This document shows, one piece after another, positions 4,074-64,000 of a stretch of 64,000 bases of DNA. This stretch comes from Bacteroidia bacterium (lineage in GTDB: Bacteria > Bacteroidota > Bacteroidia > UKL13-3). The stretch is from assembly GCA_041665785.1 (NCBI GenBank), contig JBAYIE010000006.1:38021-102020 (forward strand). The letters are read 5' to 3'. Position numbers and translations under genes: made by a program. The notes under the pieces were generated by a model. It made no database searches. It saw nothing but the letters and a program-made list of their open reading frames with translations, and was not told where the DNA came from. Positions within the stretch are counted from its first letter, which is position 1. Every line of letters starts with the position of its first letter.

Positions 4074-4118
4074 GGAGGTATGTTGAGTAGCGCATATAAT
4101 TAAGTTAGTGGCAATTTT

Positions 4119-4709: not shown

Positions 4710-4864
4710 AGAATCAAAACCAGCCACTAACAGCGCCCTTGCGTCAGTTGGGTTTAATCCTTAATTTGTACATTCGTTTCACTTGCTAGCTTTTCGCTCG
4801 GACGACTGTGACTGCGTCGCGTCATCCAACAGAATGCAAAGCCGCAAAACGTTCAGGTAATTAT

Positions 4865-5800: not shown

Positions 5801-6045
5801 CTACCACTAACTATAATGAAGATTTCTTGAGCATACAAAAATGATCGAAAAGAATATTTCAATCTATCCAAATAGTTTATTTCTTTGAACGAACAAGTAG
5901 TTGCCCGACTGACTTTGTCTGATTTATAAACTAAGACTATTGAAAATTCACCAGATATCAGGAATAAACTCCTGATCTCAGCATTTGTTCTCTCCGTTTA
6001 TTTTCCTTAGCTTCACCCCTCCTCCGCTTTTGCCTTAAAGGATTT

Positions 6046-40246: not shown

Positions 40247-40924
40247 TTATCCTTTGACCGGCAGAGCAATTGCACATACACTGATTTTGCAGGTAGCAGG
40301 CAAACATTTAATCAAAGCTTCCAGCGTAGCACCGGTGGTAATTACATCGTCGCATACCAACAGATGTTTGTTTTCAAGCACTGCTGCATCTTTTACAGTA
40401 AACACTTCGCTTACATTCATCCAGCGTTCAAAACGCGATTTGCGGGTTTGGGTTTCGGTAGCCGTTTTCTTCCCTACGGCATGCGATAAATCGGCGATGG
40501 ATAAGGCTTCGGCAATACCTTGTGCAAAGCAGGCACTTTGGTTGTAACCGCGTTTGCACAATTTGCTCTTGTGCAACGGAACAGCCACGACGGCATCTGG
40601 AAGCAATTCCAATTCCTTCAACTGGTTGCCATATGTTTTACCCAAAAATGTAGCGAGTTCCTGGTTGCCTTTATACTTGAGCTGATGCAGAATTTTTTGT
40701 CCGATGCCTTCCTTCTTGAAATAGATATACGCATAAGCGCGCTCAACAGAACATCTTCCCCAGAAAATCTTTTCAACCGGATTTTCGCGCACGCGGTGAA
40801 AATGCGTTTGCGGTAAATGATACAAACAAGAAGTACACAGGTGCTGTTCGTGTGCCTGCAAACCCTGATTGCACCCGATGCACAGGTGCGGATACAAGAG
40901 GTCGATCAGGGACTTGAGAAACAC
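40247..40924 (-). CDS. ComF family protein (phosphoribosyltransferase domain).
   Basis: N-terminal Cys4 (CIGCNQGL...CTSCL) and a C-terminal PRTase motif LLVCDDVITTGATL. Confidence 0.8.
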   Translation of the reverse strand: MFLKSLIDLLYPHLCIGCNQGLQAHEQHLCTSCLYHLPQTHFHRVRENPVEKIFWGRCSVERAYAYIYFKKEGIGQKILHQLKYKGNQELATFLGKTYGNQLKELELLPDAVVAVPLHKSKLCKRGYNQSACFAQGIAEALSIADLSHAVGKKTATETQTRKSRFERWMNVSEVFTVKDAAVLENKHLLVCDDVITTGATLEALIKCLPATCKISVCAIALPVKG

Positions 40925-43284
40925 TACTCCGCTTTGATCACGCGTATGGTTTTCTTTTCGCCTCCCAGTTCCATTTGTAAAAAGTATACACCCGGTTTTT
41001 GGTGCGTAAATGCATCAAGCAATAACGTTTGTTTTCCTGCCAGATAGAGTTGCTCCGGAATGTTTGCTACTTCTTCCCCGATCAGGTTAAACAGTGTAAA
41101 ACGCATAGGCATATTGCGCGACAATTGAACCGACAATTTCAAATCGCCTGTATATGGATTCGGATAAACGTCCAGACCGGTATACTGCGGTTGATTTTCT
41201 TCCAGCGCGGTTGGGAATGCATACGTTTCGCCATAAGCAGTGTCGGCGCAACCGTAATTGTTGAATGCAACCAGTTTGTAACGGAACATACCACTGTCGG
41301 GAACCGTAACATCATTCAATGATTCGGAAGAGCTGGTATACGAGGTAGATCCGATATTGTATTGCCATTGGATGAAACTGGTGCCGGATGAAGTATTGGT
41401 GGCTGATAATTTATTTCCGATCTGAACCAGACTGAATGATGCAGTTGGTGAAGGATAAACCTGAATGTTGCTGCTGAATGAATCGCTTGCTACACCCAGG
41501 GTATCATATACGGTAAGTGTTACCACATAGGTTCCTGGATTTTCATACACCAGTTCAGGATTGAGTTCGGTAGTACTGATTTGTCCGTTGCCAAAATCCC
41601 ATTTGAAAGAAGAGGCGGACGTAGAGCTGTTTTCCAAACTAATGCTTAGAGGGGCACAGCCTGAAATCCGGCTTGGGGTAAAAGCTGCAGCCGGTTGTGA
41701 ACTGAACTTGAACGTAATGGAACTATCGGGGTTCAGGGTAATATTGGTAATGAAGATATTGGATGAAGCATAGGTTACCTGATGGTTGGTGCTGGGCTTT
41801 GTAAAAGGCGTAATGTTTTTGTTATTTGTAGTTCCGGGAAACAGGTCGCCTGCATTTCCGTTGTTGATATTCCTTTCCATTTCACGGTTGCCATCGGCTT
41901 GCAGCAAATGAACACCCAGATTGGCCGTATCGTTGTTTACATTATTGCCCGACTGAGATAAACGTCCGGCATAATTGGTATTGATTTGCCATACAGCAAG
42001 TCCTTTCGATGGTACAAATTTATCAAAGCCTTTGTTCTGACGGTTTTCAAGCAGGAAAAACTCATTCGACTTTTTGGTATTGATGCGGTATGCAAAATTA
42101 CTATCGGCTACCGCTTTTGGAATGGTATAGGTGCCAATATCTGTAATGGTAACAGTAGTACCCCAGTTCATGGCATAGCGCGACCATGCATCAAGTATAG
42201 AGGGCGTCTTCTGGTAATTTAACCAGGTACCTGCTGCCATGATTGTATAATTACCGCAACCGGCATTGTTGTATTGAGTAGAATATAAATCGGGCAAATC
42301 CAGAATATGGCCGAACTCATGTGCTATCACTCCTATTCCGACAATGATATTGGATCCGCCGTTGTACAATTTCTCCGGGAACATGCAATAAGCACTGAAC
42401 TTCTTTCCGTCTTTGGTAGGAGTTTGTGTTGAGCCTAAAGTAGAACGGAATGAATGAATATAATTTCCATAATTCGGTGCACTTTGTTCTTCGGCACCAA
42501 TTCCGGAGTGAATCAGAATTACTGCATCAACATATCCGTCGCTATCGCTGTCGTATTGCGAAAAATCGACTACCGAATCGGCGTCGTTGATAGCGCCGAG
42601 CAACAATTTACGCGTGGCTGAACCATACGACGGACTGCTTGTTTTGCCGTAATATTTATATCCGCTATCGGAAGTAAACCATCCATACACATCGCAATTG
42701 ATGCGTAAACGTCCTTTGGTAGCCTGCATATAATAATCGCGGAAACTTCCGGTTGGGTGATTGTCCTGATTCAACAATACTTCAAAATTTGAGGTTGGAA
42801 TGGTAGCCGGTAAGTCGGTATACTGAACCATCAGAATCAACACCTTGCGATCTCCGGCCGAAGGAAAAACATTGGCCCCGGCTTTACCCATTTCCTGTTC
42901 CATGGCGGCTTGTTGCTGAAAATATTGCATCAATACCGACTGCTGGGCAGCACTATACCGTAAATGTGGAGTTAACAAGCTTGTTTTTTGCATGTTACGA
43001 TCGGCAGCATCCGATGCTACGGCTCCGCTTAAGGTCAGGTTTCCGCTGGCATCCGGTGTAGCATATTCGTAATTACCGGTTGATTTATTAAAAAGAACGG
43101 TATAGCCGCTGCTTGTTTCTAAGTAACTAATGGCTTCATTACCATAAGGATACAATGTAATGGAGGAACCATCGGCCTGCACTTGCGTATTGTGCTGAGG
43201 GTTTACACCGCAATTGGAACGCTGAGCCAGAGTGGCAAAAGAAACAAAAAACAACAACAGAAATGCTGAAAAGGGTTTGTTCAT
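40924..43284 (-). CDS. Secreted M6-like (immune inhibitor A-type) zinc metalloprotease with PKD-like domains and a T9SS C-terminal sorting domain.
   Basis: Signal peptide MNKPFSAFLLLFFVSFATLAQ. HEFGHILDLPDLY zinc-binding HExxH motif. PKD-like region (FKWDFGNGQ...YVVTLTVYD). C-terminal VYPNPYTGDLKL...GVYFLQMELGGEKKTIRVIKAE. Confidence 0.75.
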   Translation of the reverse strand: MNKPFSAFLLLFFVSFATLAQRSNCGVNPQHNTQVQADGSSITLYPYGNEAISYLETSSGYTVLFNKSTGNYEYATPDASGNLTLSGAVASDAADRNMQKTSLLTPHLRYSAAQQSVLMQYFQQQAAMEQEMGKAGANVFPSAGDRKVLILMVQYTDLPATIPTSNFEVLLNQDNHPTGSFRDYYMQATKGRLRINCDVYGWFTSDSGYKYYGKTSSPSYGSATRKLLLGAINDADSVVDFSQYDSDSDGYVDAVILIHSGIGAEEQSAPNYGNYIHSFRSTLGSTQTPTKDGKKFSAYCMFPEKLYNGGSNIIVGIGVIAHEFGHILDLPDLYSTQYNNAGCGNYTIMAAGTWLNYQKTPSILDAWSRYAMNWGTTVTITDIGTYTIPKAVADSNFAYRINTKKSNEFFLLENRQNKGFDKFVPSKGLAVWQINTNYAGRLSQSGNNVNNDTANLGVHLLQADGNREMERNINNGNAGDLFPGTTNNKNITPFTKPSTNHQVTYASSNIFITNITLNPDSSITFKFSSQPAAAFTPSRISGCAPLSISLENSSTSASSFKWDFGNGQISTTELNPELVYENPGTYVVTLTVYDTLGVASDSFSSNIQVYPSPTASFSLVQIGNKLSATNTSSGTSFIQWQYNIGSTSYTSSSESLNDVTVPDSGMFRYKLVAFNNYGCADTAYGETYAFPTALEENQPQYTGLDVYPNPYTGDLKLSVQLSRNMPMRFTLFNLIGEEVANIPEQLYLAGKQTLLLDAFTHQKPGVYFLQMELGGEKKTIRVIKAE

Positions 43285-43448
43285 CTTTAGATTAGTTATA
43301 ACTGGTTTGGGTCGCAAAATAATGAAAATCACGTATTAAACACTTGATCGAGGCAATAGATTCCAAAAGATGCAAAAAAGATGCCTCAGTTATTCAAAGA
43401 CACGCTATTTCATTATGAATCAAGATAAAATCCTGACTGTGGGGAAGG

Positions 43449-46087: not shown

Positions 46088-47566
46088 TTAATAGGTCACT
46101 TTCATGATGCTGAATTTACGGTCTTTCATGGCACAAATGAGCGTACTGTTAGCCGAGATCTGACGCGATTCTGGTGGCATCAGCGACACATAATAACTCA
46201 TCGCTTTGATCAGAATGCGCGTATCAATTTCACCCTTCGGACTAATGGTGCTGATCATAATATCGGACTCGGCAGATGCATCCATGCTGTAAATCAAAGC
46301 GACCGAACTGTTGGTATTGAGTGTAACAAAAGAAGAATAATATCCGCCATCATTTACACTCGATTGCCTCTTTTTGATAACGTCGTTGAATTGCATTTTG
46401 CCTTCGGTATCCAGCGAAAATACCATCACTTCATCGTAATTGTAAACCGTTCGTGAAGATGTTTGCTGAAACCCATTGACAAAATACGTATACACCTGTT
46501 TGGTCTCATAACTTTTTTCGGCAATAACCATACAACCTCCATCGCTCCTGGGTATAATTTTACGAATTAAAAGATCACTCAATCCGGGAGAGTTTTCGTT
46601 GGTGAGCACAGAAGTTGATTTATGCACCAAAGATTTGTCGAAAGGATATGACCTGCGAACCCGGTAAGACAAGGTACGGATATCAATACTGCACATGAAA
46701 ATACCATCAAGTGAGTTCTCAGTTGTTTTATCGCGGTAAAATCCCGAAACCGTTACACTTTGATGGTAGTTGTTTACAACCAAACCGAGGTCTACAATTT
46801 CCGTTGAGTCATTTCCCAATTCAAATTCGGTCAGATCGTTTTGCGTTGCGCTGATGGCATACAGGAAAAACTTTCGTTGCGATTCCCCCCTCTTCTTTAC
46901 CGGCGAATCCGGAAAATCAATCAACACAAAAGCATTATCGCTATCGTCGCATTCAAATCCGGTGATGAATACGTCTTCAACCGGATAATTTAACGGATAG
47001 TACTTTGAAAACAAAGGAGCCAACTCGTTGGTAAAAGCCTGTACTGCTAGTATGGATGCTTCTCCGTCTTTGGCTTTCATCAGATACATGATATAATATT
47101 TTGATTTGTCGATCGACTGTTTGATGTAAAAAGCATGTTTGTCTTTTATCGCAGAAGCATCTACCTGAAACAAAGTTTGAGCTGTACCTGCTGTAGCCAG
47201 TTGGTCATCTGCCCTCCAATACAGGAAATCATATTTATCCTGCACATTGTTGCGTGTAAGTCCAAATGCAATCAATCCGGTGTGTTGCAACATTACTTTT
47301 TCAATAATAGAACCCGGAGGCTGCCAAAGTTCTTTTGAAATATCAAGGGCTAAATTGCTTTTATAGCGTTCCAGAATTAATTCACGCGTAAATTCATTGT
47401 CTTTGGATCGCAGCAAAAAATATCCGGCCGGATTAGACCCCAGGATCAGGGTATAATTGCTGCGCGACTTTACCTTCTGCTGGTTTGACCATTCTACGGT
47501 TTGAGCCTTCAATGCATCGGGTACATTGAACAAAAGAAGTAAAATCCAAATTCGAAAATTTTTCAC
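46088..47566 (-). CDS. Hypothetical secreted protein.
   Basis: Signal peptide MKNFRIWILLLLFNVPDALKAQ. No recognisable motifs. Confidence 0.5.
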   Translation of the reverse strand: MKNFRIWILLLLFNVPDALKAQTVEWSNQQKVKSRSNYTLILGSNPAGYFLLRSKDNEFTRELILERYKSNLALDISKELWQPPGSIIEKVMLQHTGLIAFGLTRNNVQDKYDFLYWRADDQLATAGTAQTLFQVDASAIKDKHAFYIKQSIDKSKYYIMYLMKAKDGEASILAVQAFTNELAPLFSKYYPLNYPVEDVFITGFECDDSDNAFVLIDFPDSPVKKRGESQRKFFLYAISATQNDLTEFELGNDSTEIVDLGLVVNNYHQSVTVSGFYRDKTTENSLDGIFMCSIDIRTLSYRVRRSYPFDKSLVHKSTSVLTNENSPGLSDLLIRKIIPRSDGGCMVIAEKSYETKQVYTYFVNGFQQTSSRTVYNYDEVMVFSLDTEGKMQFNDVIKKRQSSVNDGGYYSSFVTLNTNSSVALIYSMDASAESDIMISTISPKGEIDTRILIKAMSYYVSLMPPESRQISANSTLICAMKDRKFSIMKVTY

Positions 47567-47589: not shown

Positions 47590-47626
47590 ATAAAAAAAGC
47601 GGGCATTTCGCCCGCTTTTCATATTT
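47590..47626 (-). terminator. Rho-independent terminator downstream of the giant repeat-protein gene.
   Basis: The minus strand reads gaaaagcgggcgaaatgcccgcttttttt: an 8-bp GC-rich stem followed by a T-run. Confidence 0.7.
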
Positions 47627-47639
47627 GGTATCAAAAGAA

Positions 47640-50600
47640 CTACCGGTTGATGACGATCCGTTTGTTGGTTACCGAGTTATCTATTCTCAAATTGATCCAG
47701 TAAACTCCCGACGACTGACCTGATAAATCAAGGTTGAAGGAGCCGGCATTCAGTTCCTTCTCTCCTTTATAAATCACTTTACCCAAAACATCGACCACCT
47801 CTATGCTTACCCGGAATGCAGCTATATCTTGTAACGATACGGTTACATGACCATCTCCGCTTGGGTTTGGATAAATCCTGGCTGCATTCAAAAGATCTAA
47901 ATCCATCAATCCGCTCTTGATGAAATTGAATGCATCGCTGATGCTTTTGCAATTGGAGGCATTTCCTGTTTCCACCGAATAATTACCATTTTGCGTGGCA
48001 ATCAGATTTTTTGAATTTGCACCACTTATGTTGTTGCCATTCAACTTCCACTGATAGGTTGCGGCAGTAACCGAACACACTAATGTATCGCTGCTGCCAT
48101 TGCGTGTAACAACCGGTTTAACCGGAAGTACATCAATTGTAACAGTTAGCGAAGCTGTTGTATCGGTGGAACAACCGGTATGCACAAGCGCCCTGTATTG
48201 ACGGGAAACAAATGCCGAAACAGTGGTGTTGGTATGTGTATACATTTCATTCGCACTTCCTGCAATAGGTATCCAACTACCCGCATTGTCTTTGAAAATC
48301 CAACCGGTTACAACTCCTCCGTTGATAAAACCACTTGCAGTAACTGCAATGGAATTTCCAGTACAATAAATTGTTGCAGTCGAAGTTGGAACCACGCTGT
48401 TCGCATTCCCCTGCAATTGGGGGTTGATGGTTATCTGCAATGTTCCGGTTGTATCGTAACTGCAGTTAGCGGTATTGAATATAATGGCCCGGTATTCACG
48501 CACCTTGGTATACGAAACATTGGTTGAAGTATGATAGAGAGTGAAGCCGTTATCGTTTATCGCAGTCCAGAAGTTCGCAACGCTGTCGCGGAACAACCAC
48601 TTTACAACACTGCCCGAAAATCCACTTACATTAATGATGGCCGGGGTACCTGCACAAATTGAAGTGTTGTTGCTGGCCGGCATAATAGCGAGATTACTTC
48701 CGTTGGTTATAATATTGATATTTACCGTTACCACTCCAGAACTATCGATGCTACAACCTGAAGTATTGTTCAACAAGGTGCGGTATTCACGGATTATATT
48801 GCTACTTACCTGTGTATTGAAATCATTGATTGATGCAGCGCTACCGGCATTCAGGTATTGCCATTCTTCTCCGGTATTCCGGAACAACCATTGCTGAATG
48901 GTATACCCAACAGGAGTATTGATAAATACATTCACCGGGTTGCCTGAACAAACAGTCAGCTGAGATGCCTGAGCCGTTGTGGCATTCACTCCATTTTGTA
49001 TCGGGTTGATGGTAACAGTGGCCGGTGCAGTGGTATCAAAACTGCATCCGGAAGAATTGATTACCAGAGCTCGGTATTGACGCACAAGCAATGAAGAAGT
49101 CTGGGTATTTACATCACTCCACGATGAAGAAGTAATATTTAAGATTTGCCAGTTATCGGTTGGATTATCGCGGTACATCCAGTATTTCACAGATGATCCG
49201 TTGAATGATCCCAGGGTGATGGTAACCAGTGCACCTGAACATACATTACTATTAGATAAAGCAGGAACAACAGTATTTTGGTTACCATATCCAATCGCAC
49301 TAACATTCACTCCAACGGATGCAGAGGTATCGGTGGGACAACCTGCACCTTTAACAACTACCACTTTATATTGGCGGGTAAATCCAGTGCTGGTTTGTGT
49401 AGCATAATCGTTGAGCGAAGTGGCTGATGTAATGGCCAGATTTGTCCAGCCTCCATTGTCTGTATTCTGCATCCAGCGTTGAATGGAATTGCCACTTCCC
49501 GGATTAACGCTGAGGTTAATCGTAGCACCTGAACATATGGACGTGCTGGCCACTGCAGGAACTATCGTATTATCGATCCCGATTGTACGCGGATTGATGG
49601 ATACGGTCTTAACGGCACTGCTGTCCATACTACAACTGTTATTGTTTTTTATGATAATACGGTACGCTCTTGTTACCGGTGCACTCACAGTAGTATTGTA
49701 ATCCGTTAAAGTTGTCGCACTTCCTGAGTACAAAGTCATCCATGGACCATTGTTGTTGCTGTATAACCAGGATTGTACCGTATGACTTCCTAGACCTGAG
49801 GTTCCTAAAATTACCGGAGTACCGGTACAATATGATCCACCATTTGAAGTCACCATGATATTGGTATCTGTGCCGAGCATACGGGGAGAAATAAAGGCTG
49901 TATCGTTGATGGAAGTTGTATCATACCGGCAACTTGCTGATTTGTAAATCAACAATGCATATTGCCGGTTAATGGCATTTGTCGTATTGGTATTGTAATC
50001 GGTTATGCTGATGGAGTACCTGTGCATATTGTTCCATGCTCCGCTGTATCCATCGCGGTACAGCCAGGTGTTTAATTGTACACCACTCAATCCATATGCA
50101 TCTACATCAATGAAGGAGCCGGTACAAACTCCCTTATTGCCATTGATTGCTGTGCTCGAAAACGTATCGGTTCCGTATATTAATGGATTGATATATACTG
50201 ACACTTCACCGGAAGTATCAAGCGTACAGGAGTTGCTCTTGCTTATTATTGCACGGTACCTGCGGTTCACCAGACTCACCGTATTTACAGACTGTATGAT
50301 GCCCGACAAAGAACTATACATAGGAATCCATGGACCTAAATCTTCACTGTATAACCAGTATTGTACAAAATTGCCCGATCCGGCATTTATATTGATATTG
50401 AATGAATTCCCTGAACAAACATTAGACCCTGATTGTGAAGTTGGAACAATGCTGTTGTCGTTTCCGTATGTTTTCGGATTAATGGTAATTACAGATGCCG
50501 CGGTGGTATCGATCCGGCAATTGCCCGCTTTATACAAAATAGCGCGATAACCCATTGTATAGGAGTTTTGTTGTGAAGCAGCAAACTCACCAAATTGATA

Positions 50601-53600
50601 ATTGGTGACCGGAGTAATATATCCTCTGTCTATCCAGTTTCCTCCGTTAAAATTATACAACATTCGGATAACAGTGGTATCCGATGCAACATTCATCGAA
50701 ACAGTATAATTCATGCCCATACAGGTTGATAGTGGTACTACCGGCGATCTTGCATTGTTATTTCCCAATACAACAGGATTGATGGTTACGGTAAGTTTTG
50801 CAGTTGTATCTAAACGGCATGTGGAATTGTTGTTGATGATGGCTACATAATCGCGTGTAACGGTTGTTCCTACATAGGTGTTGTAATCTGAAATATTGTT
50901 GGAATTGCCATTCAATAATACCGTCCACGATTTATTGTTATCGCGCGAGAGCCATCGTACAATTGAATTGCCACTTCCTGCTGTAACTGCAATGCTTTGA
51001 ACAGGTGAGCCGGCACAAACATTTACAGAGGTAGCGGTTGGAACTTTTGAAATATCCGTACCTGCAATTTTTGGAGAAATGGTAATGGTTACAGCATTCG
51101 TAGTGTCGTAGCTGCAATTCTTTAAGAGTATTACTTTGTATTGCCGGGTGGTTACATTGCTGAAATAGGTATTGTTATCGTTGATACTGGATGCTGAGGT
51201 AACAGAATGCGTAAACCATTCACCATTATTATCCTTGTATAACCAGCGTTGAATGGTAGAACCCGCTACACTTAAACTGATACCAGCGGTATTTCCGGCA
51301 CAGATCGACGCGTTCGTTGTAGTAGGTGTTGCTGCGCTTAATCCTCCGGTATAATTACGTAAGAATACACTATCCATTCGAGTTGAATCAGAAATACAGG
51401 AGCTCGTCGAAACAACAATGGCTCTGTAAAAACGCCAGGTGGAAGAGGCAACTGCTGTATTGGTATGGTTAAAGAATGATGTACTGCTTGAAGGTATTAC
51501 CTGCCAGCTCATTTTATTGTCATCACTGAAGAGCCACCGTTCGATGTAAAAGGAGGTGCTGACGCTCATACTTACAGTGTTTCCGGCACAAACAGTATCT
51601 GCTGAATTCACAAATGCAGCCAATCCGCTAATTCCATAAGTTTTATTTTTAATAAAAACATCTTTTACGCGATTTAGAGTGTCGTAACTGCAGGTGGCTC
51701 CTTTCAATACAATCGCTGTATAGCTCTTAATGGTTCCCGGAGGATATAAGGTCGTATTATCGGTGATACTGGAGGACTGGGTGGAGGAAGTGAAATTCTG
51801 CCAATTGCTTTTGTTAATGGCATACAACCATTTCCAAACAGAATTTCCATTGCCTGGTGATAAACTCAGACCTAAGTTGGTTCCTGCACATATGGTATCG
51901 AAAGCTGATATGCTGATACTGGAATCATTTCCGTAACTGATCGCTTTGATAATTACAGCTACCGCTTGTGTGCTGTCAAAATCACAGGAACTGGTATCAC
52001 TGATAATAGCCCGGTACAACCGCGTAACGGAATTGGAAACTTGCGTTAAATTATGGGTATAAGCATGTACATCTGAATTGTACGCATTCACCCAGGGACC
52101 GGTTACCCCATTGTCGCTGTATGTCCAGCGTTGCACTGTATACACACTGGAAGTTGGTACACTCAGGGAAACCGTAGATCCTGAACACATGGATGTCTTG
52201 TTTGTTGTTGGCAAAATAGCACGGTTACTGATATTCGAACCCTGAGGTTGAATCAATAGGGTTAATGCTGAAGTGGTGTCAGCCTGACACGTATTCGTAT
52301 TGTTTACAATGGTGCGGTATGAGCGGCTGACAGGTTCTGCGACCCATGAATTCAAATCGGTTATTGTACTGTTGGTATTGTTGTTTGTGAACATGTTTCT
52401 CCATTCGCCGTTATTATCGGTAGTGATCCACTTTGCAATCGTGTAACCCGAAGAAATATTTTTCAGTGCAATATCAACGGGTGTTCTGTAACACCAGATG
52501 TTTCGGGTGCTCGAAGGCTGCAAACTGCTGATATTACCACGTACCAATGGACTGATGAGTATATTAACTGCATTGGACGTATCGATGGAACAAGCTACCG
52601 GGTTCGTGATAATGGCACGATAAGCCCGGTTAACCGGACTACTTCCGTTGATATTGTATTCTATAATACTGCTTGCATTCGTTGTATAACCAAAATCTTC
52701 CCAATCGCCATTGTTGGAACTCATCACCCATTTCAAAACCGTTCCGGTATAGGTGCCTGAATTGAGGTAAATTTGCGGCGTTGTACTGCGGTTACATACC
52801 GATGAAACACTGGAGAGAGGCGTTACGGAAACTTGTCCGCGAACACTTGGATTGATAGTCACGCTGTATGCTGTCGATGAATCATAACTGCAAGCATTGG
52901 TATTGTCAACAATCACGCGGTACGACCGGGTAGTTGTAACAGGAACATAGGTATTGGTATGAGAATAAGAATTGGTTGCCGATGATGGAATTTCATTCCA
53001 GGCCCCATTCAGGTTGTCGCGGTAGATCCATCTGCGAACACTGCCTGCAGTTGGCAGCGTATTGGAAATAACATTCACTCCAACCGGTGATGTACTGCAG
53101 AAAATACCGGAAGCAGAAGTAATGGCTACTGCACCAGCGTTTCCTTTTGTGCGTGCATTGATTTGCACGGATACTGCAGCTGTAGTGTCATATGAACAAC
53201 CATTGGTATAAGTAATAGCGCGGTACGACCTTGACGTGTTGGCCAAAACCTGCGTATTGGATTCATAAAAATTGGTTGTTGAACTGGAACTGCTTATTTC
53301 TAACCATGGTCCGGTTTGGTTATTGCGATAAATCCATTTTTGAATATTGTTGCCAACTAAAGAAACATTGAATGTATTGCCACTGCAAATACTTACTGTG
53401 TTAGCAGTAGGTTGCAAAGCCGGAGCATTACCGTAACCATAAGGTTTGAGTTGTACCGACAAAATCTGCGTTGTATCTATGCTACAGGTTCCCTGTCTTA
53501 CCAAAAAAGCACGGTAATCACGATTAGTAGCTGAATTCACATAGGATTTGTTATCATATAAATAGGTTGATGCAGTTGAGCTCGCAAATTCTGACCAGTT

Positions 53601-56141
53601 ACCACCATTGTCGCGATACATCCATTTTTGCACAGACCCTGAATAGTTGTTGAGGTAAACCGTTAAGGTTGAACCTGAACAATTCACTGTTGAATTGGTA
53701 ATTGGAGTGTGCGAACTTGTTGTTCCATTCATCAAGGGTGATAATACCACTGTAACAGCGTTGGAGGTGTCTGTTGTACAGGTATTATTGTTGTTGATTA
53801 CAACTTTATATTCCCGATTGGTTTGAGTCAATACACGTGTTCCTGCCGTGCTTTCGGTGTATGTAAAAGAGGTGCCGGTCAAATTTTTCCAATCACCTCC
53901 ATTGTCGCGCGACATCCACCTAACCACACTAAATCCGCTCAGAGAAGCACAGGTAATTTGCAAACTTGTTCCACTGCATATGGCATTTGAACTGGCTGTA
54001 GGTAAGATATTGGGATTGTTTTGCCCCACACGTTGATTTACCATTAGGGTTATCGATTGCGTAGTATCGTATTTGCACATTCCCTGATTGTAAAGAATTA
54101 CACGGTATGTTTTACTGGGATTATTTGTGCTGGTATAATCACTTGGATTGGTGGAGTTATACCCGAATGCATACCAGTTTTGAGAAGCTAATTCTCTTCC
54201 AATCCAATTGCTTACCGTATACCCGGTTGGCGGTACAATTCCCAGTTGCGTATTGTTTCCATTGCAAATGTCCGACTGCGTGGAGTAGGGAGTTACAGCC
54301 AATGAACCTCTGATTAACGGATTGATCTCCACATGTACTTCATTGGAAGTATCCAGGCGAAGTGTTTCCAGATTTTTTATCAAGGCACGGTAACTGCGTA
54401 TGGTTTGTGAATTCAGGCTTCCTGTATTATTGTCGTAAAAGGTTGTATTGGTTTGTGCAGATAACACATTCCAGTCGCCGGTTTTATTATCGCGATAAAT
54501 CCAACGGCCAATCAACATACCTGTTGGCAGCGAAATGTATCCGCTTACCTGTGCACCAACACAATAGGCTGGTTGGTTGATGATGGGTGTAATATCTGCC
54601 AATCCTCCGGGTGCAGGCAATTTGATCAAAACCTGAACTGCCGGTGTTGTATCTATACGGCATTGAATGGTATTGTTGAGCAATACCCGGTAAGCACGTT
54701 GTGTATTGCTGCTCATGTTGGTATTGTTGTCGGTGTAGGTATATCCTGAACCCAGCTGTACCCAATTGCCGGTATTGTTATTACGGTATATCCAATAGCT
54801 AACCGGTGTACCATCGCTAATCTGCAATTTTACCTGTGCCCCTGCACATACTTCTGTTAATGAGGTTGCGGGAATGGCCTTGTTTGTAATTCCTCTCCGG
54901 TTAGCTCTTACGGTGTAAAAAACCGAAGCTGAAGTATCATAACTGCAATTCAAAGAAGCATTGTTCACCACAGCACGCACTTCACGCGTAAGATCATTTA
55001 AAATATTGCTGTTGCTGGTAAGTGATGCGGTAGTGCTATTGCTGAAATTCGTCCACGGCCCGGTTGCGCTATCTCTGTAATACCATGATCGGGATGATGG
55101 CCCCTGCATTTGAAATGTTTGGTTACTCCCGGCACAAACATCAATCAAACTGCCTGTAATCTGAGGTACCATATTCAACAGATAGCGGCGTTGTGCCGCC
55201 TGAATAAACAAGGAAACTTCATCCGATGTATCAGCACTGCAGGTATTGGAATTCAGGAGTACTACTTTATAACTACGGTTGATTGACGCAGAAACTGCCG
55301 TGTTATAATCGATTGCAGTAGTGGTGGCTGAACTAAAAACATTCCATGAGGTAGCACTTCCATCCCGGTACAACCAGTTGCCGATCTCCATGGGCCATTC
55401 CAATTGTAAACTCACACTGCTTCCCCCGCATATTTGCTGTTGTGTCAAAATCGGTTTAATATTTACATTGTTTCCGGCAACCACCGGATTTATTTGTATA
55501 GCTACGCTTGCTGAAGAATCCAGTTCACATGTAGCCGGATCCTTTACCATAACCCTGAATTCGCGCAGGGTATTGATATTCACATAAGGCATTTGTATGT
55601 TGAGTGATTGGCTGCTGCTGTTGATATACACCATCCAGCTTCCTCCATTATCGCGGTAAATCCATTGCGTTATCTGTGTACCCGCATTCATGATTCTCAA
55701 TGTCACAGTGCTTCCGCCACATGCCTGATAAGCAGAAGCCGATAATGAAATTCCATCGTTGTTTCCATAAGATGGAGGTACCACATTTACATCGACTCCA
55801 TCTGTAGTATCACTTGCACATGAAGCGGTTGTTACAATCGCTCTGAATGTGCGTACGGTTGGCACCGTTTGCGACATATAAAAATTGATATTGTCGCTGT
55901 TGGTATTGTACGCAATCCAACTACCGGTATTATTATCGCGGTAAACCCAACGGGTAACCGGTAAACCAGTAGCATACACGTATACGGTATTGCCCGAACA
56001 AATAGTTTCGTTTGATACGGTTGGTTTATAATTCGCCACTGCTCCACACTGTGCCCACGACGTTCCATAATTGGTCAACAGCAAACCAAAAATCAGCAGG
56101 AAAGAATACACAGATTTAAAAAGGATGTCGAAGTTTTTCAT
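47640..56141 (-). CDS. Giant (2833 aa) T9SS-secreted protein composed of about 27 divergent tandem ~100-aa repeats; probable adhesin or surface protein.
   Basis: Signal peptide MKNFDILFKSVYSFLLIFGLLLTNYGTSWAQ. Each repeat carries W(L/I)YRDN.G.W, R.YRA(I/V) and C..DTS..V.V.I.P motifs (for example WIYRDNKTGDW, WLYKDNNGEW, WMYRDNGGNW). C-terminal IYPNPSGDGHVTVSL...GVYWINLRIDN sorting domain. Confidence 0.8.
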   Translation of the reverse strand: MKNFDILFKSVYSFLLIFGLLLTNYGTSWAQCGAVANYKPTVSNETICSGNTVYVYATGLPVTRWVYRDNNTGSWIAYNTNSDNINFYMSQTVPTVRTFRAIVTTASCASDTTDGVDVNVVPPSYGNNDGISLSASAYQACGGSTVTLRIMNAGTQITQWIYRDNGGSWMVYINSSSQSLNIQMPYVNINTLREFRVMVKDPATCELDSSASVAIQINPVVAGNNVNIKPILTQQQICGGSSVSLQLEWPMEIGNWLYRDGSATSWNVFSSATTTAIDYNTAVSASINRSYKVVLLNSNTCSADTSDEVSLFIQAAQRRYLLNMVPQITGSLIDVCAGSNQTFQMQGPSSRSWYYRDSATGPWTNFSNSTTASLTSNSNILNDLTREVRAVVNNASLNCSYDTSASVFYTVRANRRGITNKAIPATSLTEVCAGAQVKLQISDGTPVSYWIYRNNNTGNWVQLGSGYTYTDNNTNMSSNTQRAYRVLLNNTIQCRIDTTPAVQVLIKLPAPGGLADITPIINQPAYCVGAQVSGYISLPTGMLIGRWIYRDNKTGDWNVLSAQTNTTFYDNNTGSLNSQTIRSYRALIKNLETLRLDTSNEVHVEINPLIRGSLAVTPYSTQSDICNGNNTQLGIVPPTGYTVSNWIGRELASQNWYAFGYNSTNPSDYTSTNNPSKTYRVILYNQGMCKYDTTQSITLMVNQRVGQNNPNILPTASSNAICSGTSLQITCASLSGFSVVRWMSRDNGGDWKNLTGTSFTYTESTAGTRVLTQTNREYKVVINNNNTCTTDTSNAVTVVLSPLMNGTTSSHTPITNSTVNCSGSTLTVYLNNYSGSVQKWMYRDNGGNWSEFASSTASTYLYDNKSYVNSATNRDYRAFLVRQGTCSIDTTQILSVQLKPYGYGNAPALQPTANTVSICSGNTFNVSLVGNNIQKWIYRNNQTGPWLEISSSSSTTNFYESNTQVLANTSRSYRAITYTNGCSYDTTAAVSVQINARTKGNAGAVAITSASGIFCSTSPVGVNVISNTLPTAGSVRRWIYRDNLNGAWNEIPSSATNSYSHTNTYVPVTTTRSYRVIVDNTNACSYDSSTAYSVTINPSVRGQVSVTPLSSVSSVCNRSTTPQIYLNSGTYTGTVLKWVMSSNNGDWEDFGYTTNASSIIEYNINGSSPVNRAYRAIITNPVACSIDTSNAVNILISPLVRGNISSLQPSSTRNIWCYRTPVDIALKNISSGYTIAKWITTDNNGEWRNMFTNNNTNSTITDLNSWVAEPVSRSYRTIVNNTNTCQADTTSALTLLIQPQGSNISNRAILPTTNKTSMCSGSTVSLSVPTSSVYTVQRWTYSDNGVTGPWVNAYNSDVHAYTHNLTQVSNSVTRLYRAIISDTSSCDFDSTQAVAVIIKAISYGNDSSISISAFDTICAGTNLGLSLSPGNGNSVWKWLYAINKSNWQNFTSSTQSSSITDNTTLYPPGTIKSYTAIVLKGATCSYDTLNRVKDVFIKNKTYGISGLAAFVNSADTVCAGNTVSMSVSTSFYIERWLFSDDNKMSWQVIPSSSTSFFNHTNTAVASSTWRFYRAIVVSTSSCISDSTRMDSVFLRNYTGGLSAATPTTTNASICAGNTAGISLSVAGSTIQRWLYKDNNGEWFTHSVTSASSINDNNTYFSNVTTRQYKVILLKNCSYDTTNAVTITISPKIAGTDISKVPTATSVNVCAGSPVQSIAVTAGSGNSIVRWLSRDNNKSWTVLLNGNSNNISDYNTYVGTTVTRDYVAIINNNSTCRLDTTAKLTVTINPVVLGNNNARSPVVPLSTCMGMNYTVSMNVASDTTVIRMLYNFNGGNWIDRGYITPVTNYQFGEFAASQQNSYTMGYRAILYKAGNCRIDTTAASVITINPKTYGNDNSIVPTSQSGSNVCSGNSFNININAGSGNFVQYWLYSEDLGPWIPMYSSLSGIIQSVNTVSLVNRRYRAIISKSNSCTLDTSGEVSVYINPLIYGTDTFSSTAINGNKGVCTGSFIDVDAYGLSGVQLNTWLYRDGYSGAWNNMHRYSISITDYNTNTTNAINRQYALLIYKSASCRYDTTSINDTAFISPRMLGTDTNIMVTSNGGSYCTGTPVILGTSGLGSHTVQSWLYSNNNGPWMTLYSGSATTLTDYNTTVSAPVTRAYRIIIKNNNSCSMDSSAVKTVSINPRTIGIDNTIVPAVASTSICSGATINLSVNPGSGNSIQRWMQNTDNGGWTNLAITSATSLNDYATQTSTGFTRQYKVVVVKGAGCPTDTSASVGVNVSAIGYGNQNTVVPALSNSNVCSGALVTITLGSFNGSSVKYWMYRDNPTDNWQILNITSSSWSDVNTQTSSLLVRQYRALVINSSGCSFDTTAPATVTINPIQNGVNATTAQASQLTVCSGNPVNVFINTPVGYTIQQWLFRNTGEEWQYLNAGSAASINDFNTQVSSNIIREYRTLLNNTSGCSIDSSGVVTVNINIITNGSNLAIMPASNNTSICAGTPAIINVSGFSGSVVKWLFRDSVANFWTAINDNGFTLYHTSTNVSYTKVREYRAIIFNTANCSYDTTGTLQITINPQLQGNANSVVPTSTATIYCTGNSIAVTASGFINGGVVTGWIFKDNAGSWIPIAGSANEMYTHTNTTVSAFVSRQYRALVHTGCSTDTTASLTVTIDVLPVKPVVTRNGSSDTLVCSVTAATYQWKLNGNNISGANSKNLIATQNGNYSVETGNASNCKSISDAFNFIKSGLMDLDLLNAARIYPNPSGDGHVTVSLQDIAAFRVSIEVVDVLGKVIYKGEKELNAGSFNLDLSGQSSGVYWINLRIDNSVTNKRIVINR

Positions 56142-56177: not shown

Positions 56178-56185
56178 CAAATCTA
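56178..56185 (-). promoter_or_regulatory. Candidate -7 box (TAGATTTG on the minus strand) about 40 nt upstream of the giant gene start.
   Basis: The minus strand reads tatagatttgattaactgacc...atg, matching the Bacteroidetes TAnnTTTG consensus. Confidence 0.3.
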
Positions 56186-56297: not shown

Positions 56298-57608
56298 TCA
56301 TTTACCCAAGGCCTTTTTGTAAACCATCATACAACGTTCACGGGCAGCAACATGATTTACGATAGGTTCCGGGTAATCCGGAGTATTTAATTCAGGCAGC
56401 CATTTGCGGATAAATTCAAATCCCGGGTCAAATTTCTTTTGTTGGCTTTCGGGATTGAAAATCCGGAAATACGGTGCTGCATCATTTCCACAACCTGCCA
56501 CCCATTGCCAGCCTCCGTTATTGGCGCTAAAATCGAAATCGAGGAGCTGCTGTGCAAACCAGGCCTCACCCCATCGCCAGTCGATCAGCAAATGTTTTAC
56601 CAGAAAACTGGCTGCTACCATGCGTACGCGGTTGTGCATGAAACCGGTTTGAAGGAGTTCACGCATTCCGGCATCAACCAGCGGATAACCGGTTTTGCCT
56701 GCACGCCATCGGGCAAATTGCATTTCATCGTTGATCCATAAAATCTGATCGTAATGCGCTTTAAACGATTTGCCTTCTCCCACTTGCGGAAATTGATCGA
56801 GGATCATGAAATAAAAATCGCGCCAGATCAGCTCGTTTAAAAATGCAGATGAATTTGCTTGTGCCTGCCTCACCAGTTCACGGATACTGATGGTGCCAAA
56901 ACGTAAATGCACGCCTAATCGTGTAGTGCCTTGCAGGGCTGGATAATTTCTGTTCGCTGCATAATTCAGTAACATTTTTTCGTCGAAAACAGTTGGAGGA
57001 ATTTCTGCTGTGCAATTTTTAAAACCCAGTTGTTCCAGTGTAAGAAAAGGCAAACCTGATATTTTATACAACGCTGAAGTATGATCCTGGCTTGGATATT
57101 CCGCCACACCGGCTTCTTTCAAATGAAGCAACCATTTTTTGGAATAAGGTGTAAAAACAGTAAAGGGTTGCCCATTGTCTTTGGCTATTTCCAACCCTTC
57201 GAACAGGCATTGATCTTTGTAGACATGAAAGGATGCCCCATTCGTTTGGGCCAGATGCTCAATGTGTCTGTCGCGCTCCTTGGCATAAGGTTCATAATCA
57301 CGATTAAGAAAAATATGTTTGATCGGATATTGCTCAAACAAACTTTTCCATACTTCCCGCGGGGATCCATGCAACACCAATAAATCGCTTCCCAATGCAT
57401 TCAGTTCAGATTTTAAAAGTTGCAATTGACGGTGAATAAACACTATCCTTCTATCGCTTTTATTTTCTATCGCATCCAGAATTTCTGTATCAAAAATAAA
57501 AACGGGCAATACCGGCAATCCGCTCTTCAATGCATGGTAAAGTCCATGATTGTCGTGCAAACGCAAATCGCGTCGAAACCAAAAAACAGAAATGGGGGGA
57601 GTTTGCAT
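56298..57608 (-). CDS. Deoxyribodipyrimidine photo-lyase / cryptochrome family protein.
   Basis: VFWFRRDLRLHDNHGLYHAL N-terminus and a C-terminal FAD-binding region (WREFY-like RDFYFMILDQFP...GGWQWVAGCGNDAAPYFRIFNP). Confidence 0.85.
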   Translation of the reverse strand: MQTPPISVFWFRRDLRLHDNHGLYHALKSGLPVLPVFIFDTEILDAIENKSDRRIVFIHRQLQLLKSELNALGSDLLVLHGSPREVWKSLFEQYPIKHIFLNRDYEPYAKERDRHIEHLAQTNGASFHVYKDQCLFEGLEIAKDNGQPFTVFTPYSKKWLLHLKEAGVAEYPSQDHTSALYKISGLPFLTLEQLGFKNCTAEIPPTVFDEKMLLNYAANRNYPALQGTTRLGVHLRFGTISIRELVRQAQANSSAFLNELIWRDFYFMILDQFPQVGEGKSFKAHYDQILWINDEMQFARWRAGKTGYPLVDAGMRELLQTGFMHNRVRMVAASFLVKHLLIDWRWGEAWFAQQLLDFDFSANNGGWQWVAGCGNDAAPYFRIFNPESQQKKFDPGFEFIRKWLPELNTPDYPEPIVNHVAARERCMMVYKKALGK

Positions 57609-59736: not shown

Positions 59737-60003
59737 GAGCACTGCGTCAAAAGCCCCAAAGCTTTTGTAAGCAGGGCGAAGTGAACGTACAACAAATTCC
59801 CGCCTAGGGAATTTGGGTTTGTTTCTCCCCCCAACGGGATCGCGCGCCAGCGCAATCTTTCCTGATTAGTTAGTTTCCGATAGCACTGCGTCAAAAGCCC
59901 CAAAGCTTTTGTAAGCAGGGCGAAGTGAACGTACAACAAATTCCCGTCTAGGGAATTTGGGTTTGTTTCTCCACCCAATGGGATCGCGCGTTAGCGCAAT
60001 CTT
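59737..60003. repeat. Two tandem direct copies of a ~122-bp element (59737..59859 and 59882..60003) downstream of tRNA-Ser.
   Basis: agcactgcgtcaaaagccccaaagcttttgtaagcagggcgaagtgaacgtacaacaaattcccg(c/t)ctagggaatttgggtttgtttctcc(c/a)ccca(ac/at)gggatcgcgcg(cc/tt)agcgcaatctt. Copies differ at about 6 positions. Each contains aattcccgNctagggaatt and aaagc..gcttt hairpins. Confidence 0.8.
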
Positions 60004-60102
60004 AAAGTATTATTTATATGTAAAATGCAATTCTTTTGAAGGATTCCCAAAAATATGCACCACCCATATTTCAATTTAAATTTGAATAAATCCAATATAG
60101 TT

Positions 60103-60501
60103 TCACTTTACCCGGAATCCTAATTCATAACAACTATTATCAGTGGGATTATAATTAAAAGTGCAACCTGAATTCTCCCGATTATTCTTTTTTAGTTTTG
60201 ACTCATCATTATATTTATTTACAGTGTCATAACACTTTCGATTTGAATAAACCATAAAGTAATAAAAAGTAAAGAAGCCGAGATAAGCCAGAGCCAAAAA
60301 AAAAATTATATAATCTCTTTCTACCTGATTGATCGTTTTTATTGAGATCAAAGTCATACCTATTGTTATACTCCAAAGAATAGTAATTATTGTCATAAGA
60401 TTTAGTGCTCCCCAGTGATGCCTATCGTTTTTTAGAAATCGAAAGAAGTCATAACATCTATAATAAAATATATTTAACAATGTCTTCATTTTACCCTTCA
60501 A
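60103..60501 (-). CDS. Small membrane protein (2 transmembrane helices), translationally coupled to the upstream Fic gene.
   Basis: 132 aa with hydrophobic segments LMTIITILWSITIGMTLISI and IIFFLALAYLGFFTFYYFMVY. Overlaps the Fic gene by 4 bp. AT-rich. Confidence 0.5.
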   Translation of the reverse strand: MKGKMKTLLNIFYYRCYDFFRFLKNDRHHWGALNLMTIITILWSITIGMTLISIKTINQVERDYIIFFLALAYLGFFTFYYFMVYSNRKCYDTVNKYNDESKLKKNNRENSGCTFNYNPTDNSCYELGFRVK

Positions 60502-61580
60502 CCAGCTTTTAACAGATTAAACAAATCAATATTGATATACAACATATCTCTACCCACCTTTTCACCTTTCAAAACACCGATCTTCTCAAGGTCTTTCAGG
60601 TATTTGCTTGCCGTAAAGCGTGTGATGCCGAGTTGATCTTCCAATGCCGATATCCTCGCGTAGGGTTGATGAAACAGCACTTCTACCAGTTCTTTGGAAT
60701 AAATCTTTGGCCGCTTCAACTTTACTTTCTCAATTGTTTTTTCTAACAATAACTTAATTCCCCGGATAGTTTTGATCGTATCCGTTGCAGAATATGCTAC
60801 CGATTCCAGCATATATACAATCCATTCTTCCCAATTTCTATTTTGACGAACATTATTCAACCCTTTATAATATTGCTTCTTCTGTTTAATTATAAATGAA
60901 CTTAGGTATAAAATAGGCAACTCAAGCAATCCTTCATGAATGAGATAAAGAACATTTAAAATACGCCCGGTTCTGCCATTTCCATCATAAAATGGATGTA
61001 TAGATTCAAACTGATAATGCATTATTCCCATCCTAATCAATGGATCCATATCCTCGTTCGTTCCATTTATATATTCTTCCAGATTCTTCAGTTTATCCTG
61101 AATAATATCTTTCCCAAACGGGGGGGTATAAATTACTTTACCAGTTCGGACTTGCTTTAAAGCAGTTCCGGGCTGATTTCTTATCCCGGCATTATTCCCC
61201 ATCAGGCATTCCTGAATCTTCATCAACTCTCGGGTCGTTATAAGTTTTTTCTTTTTGATCAACTCATATCCCAGCCACATCGCTTGCTTATAATTCAGAA
61301 CCTCTTTAACAGCAGCATTCAAATCCGTATTACCAACCGAATATGCCTTATAAAGCTCATCCTGTGTGGTTACAATATTTTCAATCGCTGAACTATCTCT
61401 GGCTTCACGCAGTACCAGACTGTCTAAAATGATTACCGGGTTTGGGATCAGACCGGTCATTCCTTTGAGTTCGGCCAAGGCTTTATTCGCTTGAATCGCT
61501 TTATTATAAACCTTGGGTGTCAATGTTAACTTTGGCGGTAATAACGGAAGTTTATTATATGGTTTATCTGGGCTGTACAT
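60498..61580 (-). CDS. Fic/DOC family protein (class II, N-terminal inhibitory motif, C-terminal winged-helix).
   Basis: Fic motif HPFYDGNGRTGR. Inhibitory S-SAI-E-N motif near the N-terminus. C-terminal HTH-like region (ISALEDQLGITRFTASKYLKDLEKIGVL). AT-rich. Confidence 0.85.
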   Translation of the reverse strand: MYSPDKPYNKLPLLPPKLTLTPKVYNKAIQANKALAELKGMTGLIPNPVIILDSLVLREARDSSAIENIVTTQDELYKAYSVGNTDLNAAVKEVLNYKQAMWLGYELIKKKKLITTRELMKIQECLMGNNAGIRNQPGTALKQVRTGKVIYTPPFGKDIIQDKLKNLEEYINGTNEDMDPLIRMGIMHYQFESIHPFYDGNGRTGRILNVLYLIHEGLLELPILYLSSFIIKQKKQYYKGLNNVRQNRNWEEWIVYMLESVAYSATDTIKTIRGIKLLLEKTIEKVKLKRPKIYSKELVEVLFHQPYARISALEDQLGITRFTASKYLKDLEKIGVLKGEKVGRDMLYINIDLFNLLKAG

Positions 61581-61589
61581 TATCTGGCC

Positions 61590-61745
61590 ATTTTTGATAT
61601 GTTAATTTTTTCACGTTTTTTCAACATATCTCAAAAATACGTGAATTGCTTTAACATATCCAAACAATATGTTTAAAGTATTGGGTTATTTCAACATATT
61701 GCAAAAATGGGTGCGTTCCTTTAACATATCCCCTCCCCAAAAAAC
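61590..61745. promoter_or_regulatory. Upstream region of the Fic gene with six reiterated TT(C/T)AACATAT(C/T) motifs in both orientations, arranged as two ~45-bp direct repeats.
   Basis: atatgttaa, ttcaacatatctc, tttaacatatcc, caatatgtttaa, ttcaacatattgc, tttaacatatccc. Units ttcaacatatctcaaaaatacgtgaattgctttaacatatcc and ttcaacatattgcaaaaatgggtgcgttcctttaacatatcc. Confidence 0.5.
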
Positions 61746-61798
61746 CCTTCAATGATTTTGTGCCCTGATTCCTCACACACTCACCCACTCACTCATAC

Positions 61799-63985: not shown

Positions 63986-64000
63986 AAAATACCGCTGAGC

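Follow-up and report, generated by a model that had tools for sequence, protein, structure and literature searches.

The window analysed here, a stretch of 64,000 nucleotides (64 kb) from a Bacteroidia bacterium (contig JBAYIE010000006.1 of assembly GCA_041665785.1), carries a giant gene on its minus strand (47640..56141). It is a single open reading frame (ORF) with an ATG start, encoding 2833 amino acids (aa) plus the stop codon. The product is very probably a type IX secretion system (T9SS) cargo that ends in a type A sorting domain and consists of an array of immunoglobulin (Ig)-like domains of the Ig_7 type. The number of domains in the array, 27, is frozen across the whole orthologous family. 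Conservation of the cysteines and analogy with a known fibre moderately favour the view that these domains would form a rod of fixed length, stapled by disulfides. An identical protein is found in GenBank (MFA6262294.1), under the name 'MAG: T9SS type A sorting domain-containing protein [Bacteroidia bacterium]' (MAG, metagenome-assembled genome).

Domain architecture and classification of the repeat

The gene and the parts of its product are located as follows.

47640..56141, minus strand, whole coding sequence (single ORF, ATG start, 2833 aa plus stop)
56052..56141, minus strand, predicted signal peptide, aa 1-30, recognised on visual inspection (a basic n-region, then a hydrophobic core, with SWA before Q)
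48114..56051, minus strand, array of 27 tandem Ig_7-type Ig-like domains of about 98 aa, aa 31-2676
55773-56051, minus strand, repeat 1
55485-55772, minus strand, repeat 2
55194-55484, minus strand, repeat 3
54903-55193, minus strand, repeat 4
54612-54902, minus strand, repeat 5
54315-54611, minus strand, repeat 6, which alone lacks the second conserved Cys (L594 instead)
54027-54314, minus strand, repeat 7
53733-54026, minus strand, repeat 8
53445-53732, minus strand, repeat 9
53139-53444, minus strand, repeat 10
52839-53138, minus strand, repeat 11
52539-52838, minus strand, repeat 12
52236-52538, minus strand, repeat 13
51939-52235, minus strand, repeat 14
51645-51938, minus strand, repeat 15
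51354-51644, minus strand, repeat 16
51063-51353, minus strand, repeat 17
50766-51062, minus strand, repeat 18
50466-50765, minus strand, repeat 19, degenerate (first Trp replaced, IRMLYNFNGGNW; longer middle loop)
50175-50465, minus strand, repeat 20
49878-50174, minus strand, repeat 21
49584-49877, minus strand, repeat 22
49290-49583, minus strand, repeat 23
48999-49289, minus strand, repeat 24
48708-48998, minus strand, repeat 25
48411-48707, minus strand, repeat 26
48114-48410, minus strand, repeat 27
47892..48113, minus strand, 28th Ig-like domain, differing in type from the 27 repeats, aa 2677-2750 (..YQWKLNGNNISGA...GNYSVE..C..)
47643..47876, minus strand, type A T9SS C-terminal sorting domain (CTD), aa 2756-2833 (PF18962 and TIGR04183)

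Both ends of the protein bear on its export. At the N-terminus, the residues A30-Q31-C32-G33 are nearly invariant across orthologues, and signal peptidase I is predicted to cut between SWA and QC, exposing Gln31, which fits the 'Q-rule' of Bacteroidetes (PMC5837995). At the C-terminus, Por_Secre_tail (PF18962, aa 2756-2831) is matched with an E-value of 3.5e-13 and 50.1 bits, against a cutoff of 27, and the type A sorting domain TIGR04183 with an E-value of 8e-11 and 41.8 bits, where the cutoff is 23; the two matches fall within aa 2756-2832. The CTD is thus of type A and not of the SprB-like type B (CHU_C/TIGR04131), and the Pfam and NCBIfam profiles of SprB and CHU_C find no match in the giant protein. 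The presence of at least four other Por_Secre_tail genes within the window indirectly supports the use of a T9SS by the organism. No distinct head domain is present, and the signal peptide leads directly into repeat 1, whose first residue is 31. The 28th Ig-like domain, between the array and the CTD, is a weak match to Ig_2 (E 3e-4).

The array itself can be recognized by a W-x-Y-R-D-N...W motif, which recurs every 95-102 aa. When the repeats are made into a profile hidden Markov model (HMM), it detects 27 copies of full length between residues 32 and 2672, and the count is exactly 27 when the degenerate 19th copy is included. The 27-row alignment has the consensus C.G...V..W.YRDN.G.W...D.NT.V....R.YRAI..N...C..DTT..V.V.I.P, with C16, W46, and D83 invariant, W37 and C80 present in at least 90% of the repeats, and a mean column identity of 36%. 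At the DNA level, Tandem Repeats Finder reports no tandem repeats in the gene, comparison of the gene with itself by blastn yields only one 30-nt piece, and the longest exact repeat is 16 nt. The codon-aligned nucleotide identity between repeats averages 42% and does not exceed 51%. A recent expansion is therefore ruled out. A super-repeat structure (27 = 3x9) was also considered and rejected, since the similarity between repeats simply falls off with distance, without a peak at any offset.

These results agree with most of what an earlier reading made from the letters alone (the sequence-only reading) had claimed, namely a 2833-aa T9SS cargo with a signal peptide and a Por CTD at its ends, almost entirely made of about 27 diverged repeats of around 100 aa with a W.YRDN motif, and strongly diverged at the DNA level. 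That reading overlooked the 28th domain. It had also proposed that the repeat may be unclassified, with a confident profile-profile placement in a well-known family named beforehand as refuting this. Such a placement, in a known Ig-like family, is what was obtained.

The Pfam family Ig_7 (PF19081, 'Ig-like domain CHU_C associated') matches the whole protein in 6 stretches at 33.8 bits, a small margin above its gathering threshold of 27.3. When the repeats are taken singly, 15 of the 27 match Ig_7 at E <= 1 (best E 8.1e-5), and no other family recurs. The repeat HMM finds 26 domains in the CHU_C protein P0043, the same 26 that Pfam calls Ig_7 (516 bits). Aligned by hhalign with these 26 domains, the 27-repeat profile gives a probability of 96.9% and an E-value of 1.7e-10 over 82 columns, with both cysteines, the W, and the Y-R-A-V strands in register. 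PF19081 already stands in the precomputed Pfam annotation of the giant protein in a public protein collection.

The other part of the earlier judgement, that the repeat is not an obvious PKD, cadherin, or SprB one, is upheld: the PKD and cadherin profiles match neither the whole protein nor any repeat at E <= 1. No carbohydrate-binding module (CBM) or lectin family is matched by the whole protein or by single repeats. Among solved structures, the only sequence match is the Ig-like protein of phage Moo19, and it is marginal (E 0.1 and 0.02). This entry (PDB 9d7z_J) is an Ig-like capsid protein of a Shigella phage, with which the repeats share the pattern W..R....W......EYKVTV....G.S.DST; the resemblance hints that phage Ig-like decoration domains and the Ig_7 domains of Bacteroidota are related.

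Could the repeat nevertheless be a genuinely new family? Single repeats are weak Ig_7 matches, 12 of the 27 giving none at E <= 1, and the features WxYRDNxGxW and CxxD(T/S)(T/S), along with about 10 extra residues, occur only in one orthologous family among 1.84 billion representative proteins. Still, the whole-protein score lies above the Pfam cutoff, the hhalign match is to bona fide Ig_7 domains, the repeat HMM recovers the Ig_7 domains of CHU_C proteins one for one, and the repeat shares with Ig_7 both Cys positions and the order of its strands. This makes a new family highly improbable; the repeat is a derived Ig_7 subtype, neither a new fold nor a new family.

Orthologous family, predicted fold, and cysteine pattern

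A word-indexed protein search returns about 40 full-length relatives, all of them metagenome or MAG sequences, while an exhaustive search of the 1.84 billion representatives returns 134 proteins at E <= 1e-3. Among these 134, the WxYRD and CxxD(T/S)(T/S) signatures occur only in the orthologous group and its fragments, where the repeat HMM reaches 55-70 bits per repeat. The remaining matches are generic Ig_7 arrays of 8-44 repeats, with 14-27 bits per repeat. A scan of genome contigs with the single protein finds three MAG loci, and one relative is labelled Chitinophagaceae. A further full-length orthologue (L004, CAYMRD010000003.1, 49% identity) lies on a contig labelled 'uncultured Bifidobacteriaceae bacterium', a label that is implausible for a T9SS cargo and probably reflects a mislabelled or chimeric MAG.

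All 35 full-length orthologues, at 36-100% identity, have exactly 27 repeats. Moreover, the order of the repeats is retained. For every repeat (27/27), the best match in an orthologue is the repeat at the same position, at both 58% and 50% identity; this holds for 26/27 at 40% identity and for 7/27 at 36%, where about 1 is expected by chance. The degeneracy of repeat 19 is likewise kept in orthologues. The array is evenly conserved over its length (0.40-0.60 per repeat), and the CTD is the least conserved part (0.29). The description of the array as old and selectively maintained finds support in this comparison of repeat numbers and positions among relatives down to 36% identity.

As for the fold, AlphaFold2 (AF2) models the repeats as Ig-like beta-sandwiches, in line with the beta-sandwich guess of the sequence-only reading. 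The model of a single repeat has a predicted local distance difference test (pLDDT) score of 92.1 and a predicted template modelling (pTM) score of 0.83, and that of three repeats is all-beta, with a pLDDT of 93.5 and a pTM of 0.72. For three domains, the latter value suggests a defined inter-domain geometry in the model. Searched with Foldseek, the three-repeat model has its top matches in stem and base fragments of GhpA (9flx, 9g8b, 9fly; E ~2e-11), with contactin, titin, and Fc-receptor arrays close behind; with GhpA, the TM-scores stay low (~0.3), and arrays of generic Ig/FN3 domains do almost as well.

The giant protein contains 57 Cys residues. In the alignment of the 35 orthologues, 52 Cys columns are invariant, and the variation at the others is informative. 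C432, the first Cys of repeat 5, is lost in 5 orthologues, and repeat 6 has Leu where its partner would stand. C2689, which is the first Cys of domain 28, is also lost in 5 orthologues, and no domain follows it. Among the columns at repeat Cys positions, only one more varies, namely the acceptor in repeat 6, which is Leu (L594) in the query and Cys in five orthologues, all five of which keep C432. C32 and C48 are absent only from the N-terminally truncated P0004, and four sporadic Cys columns (3-7 sequences each) are located in the signal-peptide region for three of them and at query V309 for the fourth.

Since the two variable residues C432 and C2689 are exactly the two that would lack a partner, we infer that the first Cys (C16) of each domain i pairs with the second Cys (C80) of domain i+1. 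Two other schemes were rejected: intradomain pairing would leave the invariant C527 without a partner, and pairing of C80(i) with C16(i+1) would leave the invariant C626 and C2657 without one. At the ends of the array, the near-invariant C32, adjacent to the N-terminus of the mature protein, would pair with C108 of domain 1, and C2593 of repeat 27 with the invariant C2731 of domain 28. According to the DSSP strings of the AF2 models, the A'-B turn holds the first Cys and the F-G turn the second. In an Ig topology, these turns would put the first Cys at the C-terminal pole and the second at the N-terminal pole, and the two Cys, being at opposite poles, would therefore face each other across the domain junction. 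The members of the putative pairs are about 160 aa apart. One extra Cys of the query, C731 (repeat 8, window ~53949-53951), is not common to three or more orthologues; counted along with C432 and C2689, it brings the number of Cys to an odd value (57), and at least one free thiol is therefore predicted.

Bacteroidota carry an O-glycosylation sequon, D(S/T)(A/I/L/V/M/T) (PMC8550257). It is found at the invariant Asp after the second Cys in 16 of the 27 repeats, and in 564 of 1113 repeats over the orthologues. The whole protein holds 24 sequons, against 10.8 ± 3.1 in shuffled sequences. Glycosylation of the protein is plausible from these sequence counts.

Locus of the giant gene and other features of the window

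Two signals flank the coding sequence.

56178-56185, minus strand, candidate Bacteroidetes -7 promoter box TAGATTTG, a motif match only, 37 nt upstream of the ATG
47592-47619, minus strand, intrinsic terminator (10-bp GC-rich stem, 5-nt loop, T-run), starting about 20 nt past the stop codon

The terminator reads AAAAGCGGGC-GAAAT-GCCCGCTTTT, followed by the T-run. The sequence-only reading had proposed a terminator proper to the gene and a -7 box. The former stands, because a hairpin with a T-run lies about 20 nt past the stop codon, so that the giant gene is terminated on its own. As regards the latter, a box is indeed present, but the motif TAnnTTTG is at chance level in the 64-kb window (55 occurrences, against 66 expected from shuffles). 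The box was therefore dropped as evidence of a promoter, and TAGATTTG stays a candidate only.

The neighbours of the giant gene are housekeeping genes (photolyase, PurE, MscS) and a gene for an unannotatable 492-aa secreted protein. Upstream lies the photolyase gene (56298..57608), and downstream the gene of the 492-aa protein, which has no family match, followed by that of a DUF6427 protein. The 492-aa protein (46088-47566, minus strand), directly past the terminator, has a signal-peptide-like N-terminus, no Pfam match at E <= 10, and no NCBIfam match at E <= 1, and its gene does not adjoin the orthologues in the loci L001 and L002. No PorP/SprF gene is adjacent to the giant gene, and no PorP/PorE-type anchor gene is found next to it or in these two orthologous loci. 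The flanks are wholly different in L001 and L002, with no conserved neighbourhood or partner genes, and therefore no partner gene is implied. With its own terminator and no conserved neighbours, the giant gene is a standalone, monocistronic gene.

Elsewhere in the window, genes with a type A T9SS tail (Por_Secre_tail) are located at 53-1357 (+), 1527-4073 (+), 17799-19112 (-), and 40924-43332 (-). Among their products are an endonuclease I protein that also carries an F5/8 type C domain and a peptidase of the M6 (immune inhibitor A-like) type that has a PKD domain. The organism seems to devote much to T9SS cargo. A 728-aa ORF at 61799-63985 (-) is extremely rich in K, E, and Q, coiled-coil-like, and without Pfam match; it coincides with a strong strand skew at 62001-64000 (AT skew -0.40, GC skew -0.21). 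Two patches have a low GC content compared with about 0.43 elsewhere, 4001-6000 (0.336), with two ORFs without family matches (4119-4709 and 4808-5800), and 60001-62000 (0.360), with a gene of the Fic/DOC adenylyltransferase type (60498-61580). These patches may be horizontally acquired islets.

A proposed stapled rod, its rivals, and known systems

By this reading, the giant protein would be exported by the Sec pathway and the T9SS, to form a long, stiff fibre on the cell surface, or released from it. Following what is established for T9SS, signal peptidase I would cut after SWA and Gln31 would be cyclised to pyroglutamate. The folded chain would then pass through the SprA/Sov translocon, and the type A CTD would be handed to the PorV shuttle and removed. 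The mature protein might be statically attached to the surface (via anionic lipopolysaccharide, A-LPS, in the Porphyromonas gingivalis model) or released. As described in PMC9143113 and PMC12618676, PorV collects type A CTDs, and the cargo is statically anchored (to A-LPS in P. gingivalis) or released; cargoes of type B, SprB among them, depend on a cognate PorP/SprF and travel with the gliding track, which does not concern the giant protein. The 28 domains would make up an extended, probably glycosylated rod of ~100 nm (about 4 nm per Ig domain), with a disulfide staple at nearly every domain junction. Without a head domain, any binding would have to be done by the repeats themselves; alternatively, the protein might serve as a fixed-length spacer or coat element. 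From the cysteine logic and the analogy with GhpA, the odds are slightly better than even that the protein is such a disulfide-stapled rod of fixed length, whereas a role as an adhesin is possible but rather doubtful.

Ig_7 arrays in large T9SS proteins of Bacteroidota, for example P0043, offer the closest comparison. They share the homologous domain, the long tandem arrangement, T9SS export, and the two-Cys pattern (a C.G close to the start, and a C that follows the Y-R-A-V F-strand). Generic Ig_7 repeats are nevertheless shorter (~86 aa, against ~98 aa here, with WxYRDNxGxW, D.NT, and the invariant CxxD(T/S)(T/S)). They score only 14-27 bits per repeat on the repeat HMM, against 55-70 here, and vary from 8 to 44 in number, against a fixed 27 here. 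The P0043-type arrays also end in a CHU_C/type B CTD and not in a type A one.

The best structural match, GhpA of Aureispira sp. (PDB 9flx, 9g8b, 9fly, 9flp), is a T9SS substrate of 5898 aa that forms a heptamer of uniform length, with N-terminal hook, neck, and base modules and 52 Ig-like stem repeats. Disulfides link nearby Ig-like domains (Cys2988-Cys3140, 152 aa apart), and every Ig-like domain bears putative O-glycans (bioRxiv 10.1101/2024.01.29.577165). A long stem of slightly varying Ig-like repeats is common to both proteins, and the spacing of 152 aa compares with the ~160 aa of the predicted pairs. However, ghpB and ghpC (PorP/PorE homologues) lie downstream of ghpA, and no counterparts are found here or in L001 and L002. 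The hook and neck modules are also missing from the giant protein, which has no head, ends in a type A CTD, and shows no sequence similarity to GhpA.

SprB and RemA of Flavobacterium johnsoniae are likewise large or giant repeat-rich T9SS cargoes, displayed on the surface in that organism. RemA has a type A CTD, as here (PMC12618676), but its lectin domain has no counterpart. The SprB repeats, type B CTD, downstream SprF, and gliding-track loading of SprB are all features not found here. With the Ig/FN3 rods of titin, contactins, SiiE, and CD22, there is no homology beyond the fold, export and anchoring differ, and the giant protein lacks super-repeat periodicity. A giant Ig-like T9SS cargo, with a domain covered by Pfam and a name in GenBank, is thus something already known, and this protein is one more uncharacterised member.

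Several points weigh against the stapled fixed-length rod. The disulfide pattern is deduced from conservation logic, Ig topology, and the GhpA analogy, and some distant relatives depart from it: in repeat 12, the first Cys is missing from P0037 and P0042, and the fragment P0039 has no second Cys in its repeat 9 and no first Cys in its repeat 10. Three relatives at ~30% identity have 29-30 repeats, and the frozen number could stem from the lack of a recombination substrate (42% nucleotide identity) and not from selection on length. The members of the family all come from uncultured MAGs. At its third position, the sequon has Ser and Thr equally often, with DTS or DSS in 11 of the 27 repeats, and because of this, the conservation of D(T/S)(T/S) is not explained by glycosylation. 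Nothing that was found points to a ligand or a binding function, and surface attachment and release may both be compatible with the sequence.

Release is itself one of the rival explanations: after cleavage of the CTD, the protein would be shed as a soluble or matrix (biofilm-scaffold) protein. No attachment is specified in the sequence, but the purpose of a stapled, fixed-length rod of 28 domains is harder to see for a soluble protein, and those large T9SS cargoes with Ig repeats that have been studied to date (SprB, RemA, GhpA) are surface-bound, which leaves this explanation rather unlikely. Another one takes the GhpA analogy further, with copies lying side by side in a hollow, straight, fixed-length bundle, a 'headless grappling hook'. 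It would account for GhpA stem and base fragments being the best structural matches to three repeats, GhpA being itself a heptamer of parallel Ig-like strands of uniform length. Lateral in-register contacts would also be expected to produce the positional conservation (27/27 at 50-58% identity, 26/27 at 40%) and its evenness along the array. A multi-stranded appendage of this kind is nonetheless decidedly unlikely, given the type A CTD, a repeat 1 that directly follows the signal peptide where a hook or neck module would stand, the lack of PorP/PorE-type neighbours here and in two orthologous loci, the lack of detectable sequence similarity to GhpA, and TM-scores of ~0.3 that generic Ig/FN3 arrays nearly equal.

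The third explanation sees in the repeats a multivalent glycan or polymer binder, in which the Trp pair and the Asp/Asn motifs of each lectin-like repeat would form a site, with high avidity for polysaccharide particles or prey surfaces. The conservation of the W37, W46, RDN, D.NT, and DT(S/T) motifs in every repeat, the lack of a separate head, and the frequency of Ig_7 arrays in polysaccharide-degrading Cytophagia/CHU_C proteins (as the Pfam name recalls) all go in this direction. Yet the first Trp and the Y-R-A of the F-strand are common to ordinary Ig_7 domains and look like core residues, the polar motifs lie in pole loops (DSSP), where a junction or structural role would fit them equally well, and no CBM or lectin family is matched. 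Glycan binding is, therefore, given little chance. The positive case for these three explanations (shed matrix protein, bundle, and glycan binder) does not go beyond analogy.

Two features lend the protein some significance. The copy number and order of the repeats are frozen at 36-100% identity, unlike those of the usual adhesin stalks, which vary between strains, and this makes the family a test case for the selection of fibre length. Besides, the C16(i)-C80(i+1) rule predicts a continuous chain of inter-domain disulfides. If true, it would extend the cryo-EM finding on GhpA, help to interpret many Ig_7-type arrays, and perhaps be applicable to SprB-like fibres for which there is no structure. 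It is unlikely that the protein represents a new type of T9SS surface appendage in uncultured Bacteroidia, a headless glycosylated rod with 27+1 domains held by selection and a disulfide at nearly every junction. If it did, such a headless rod could serve as a spacer or molecular ruler that determines, for example, how thick a surface layer is or what stand-off distance is kept, or it could be part of a GhpA-like multi-stranded bundle.

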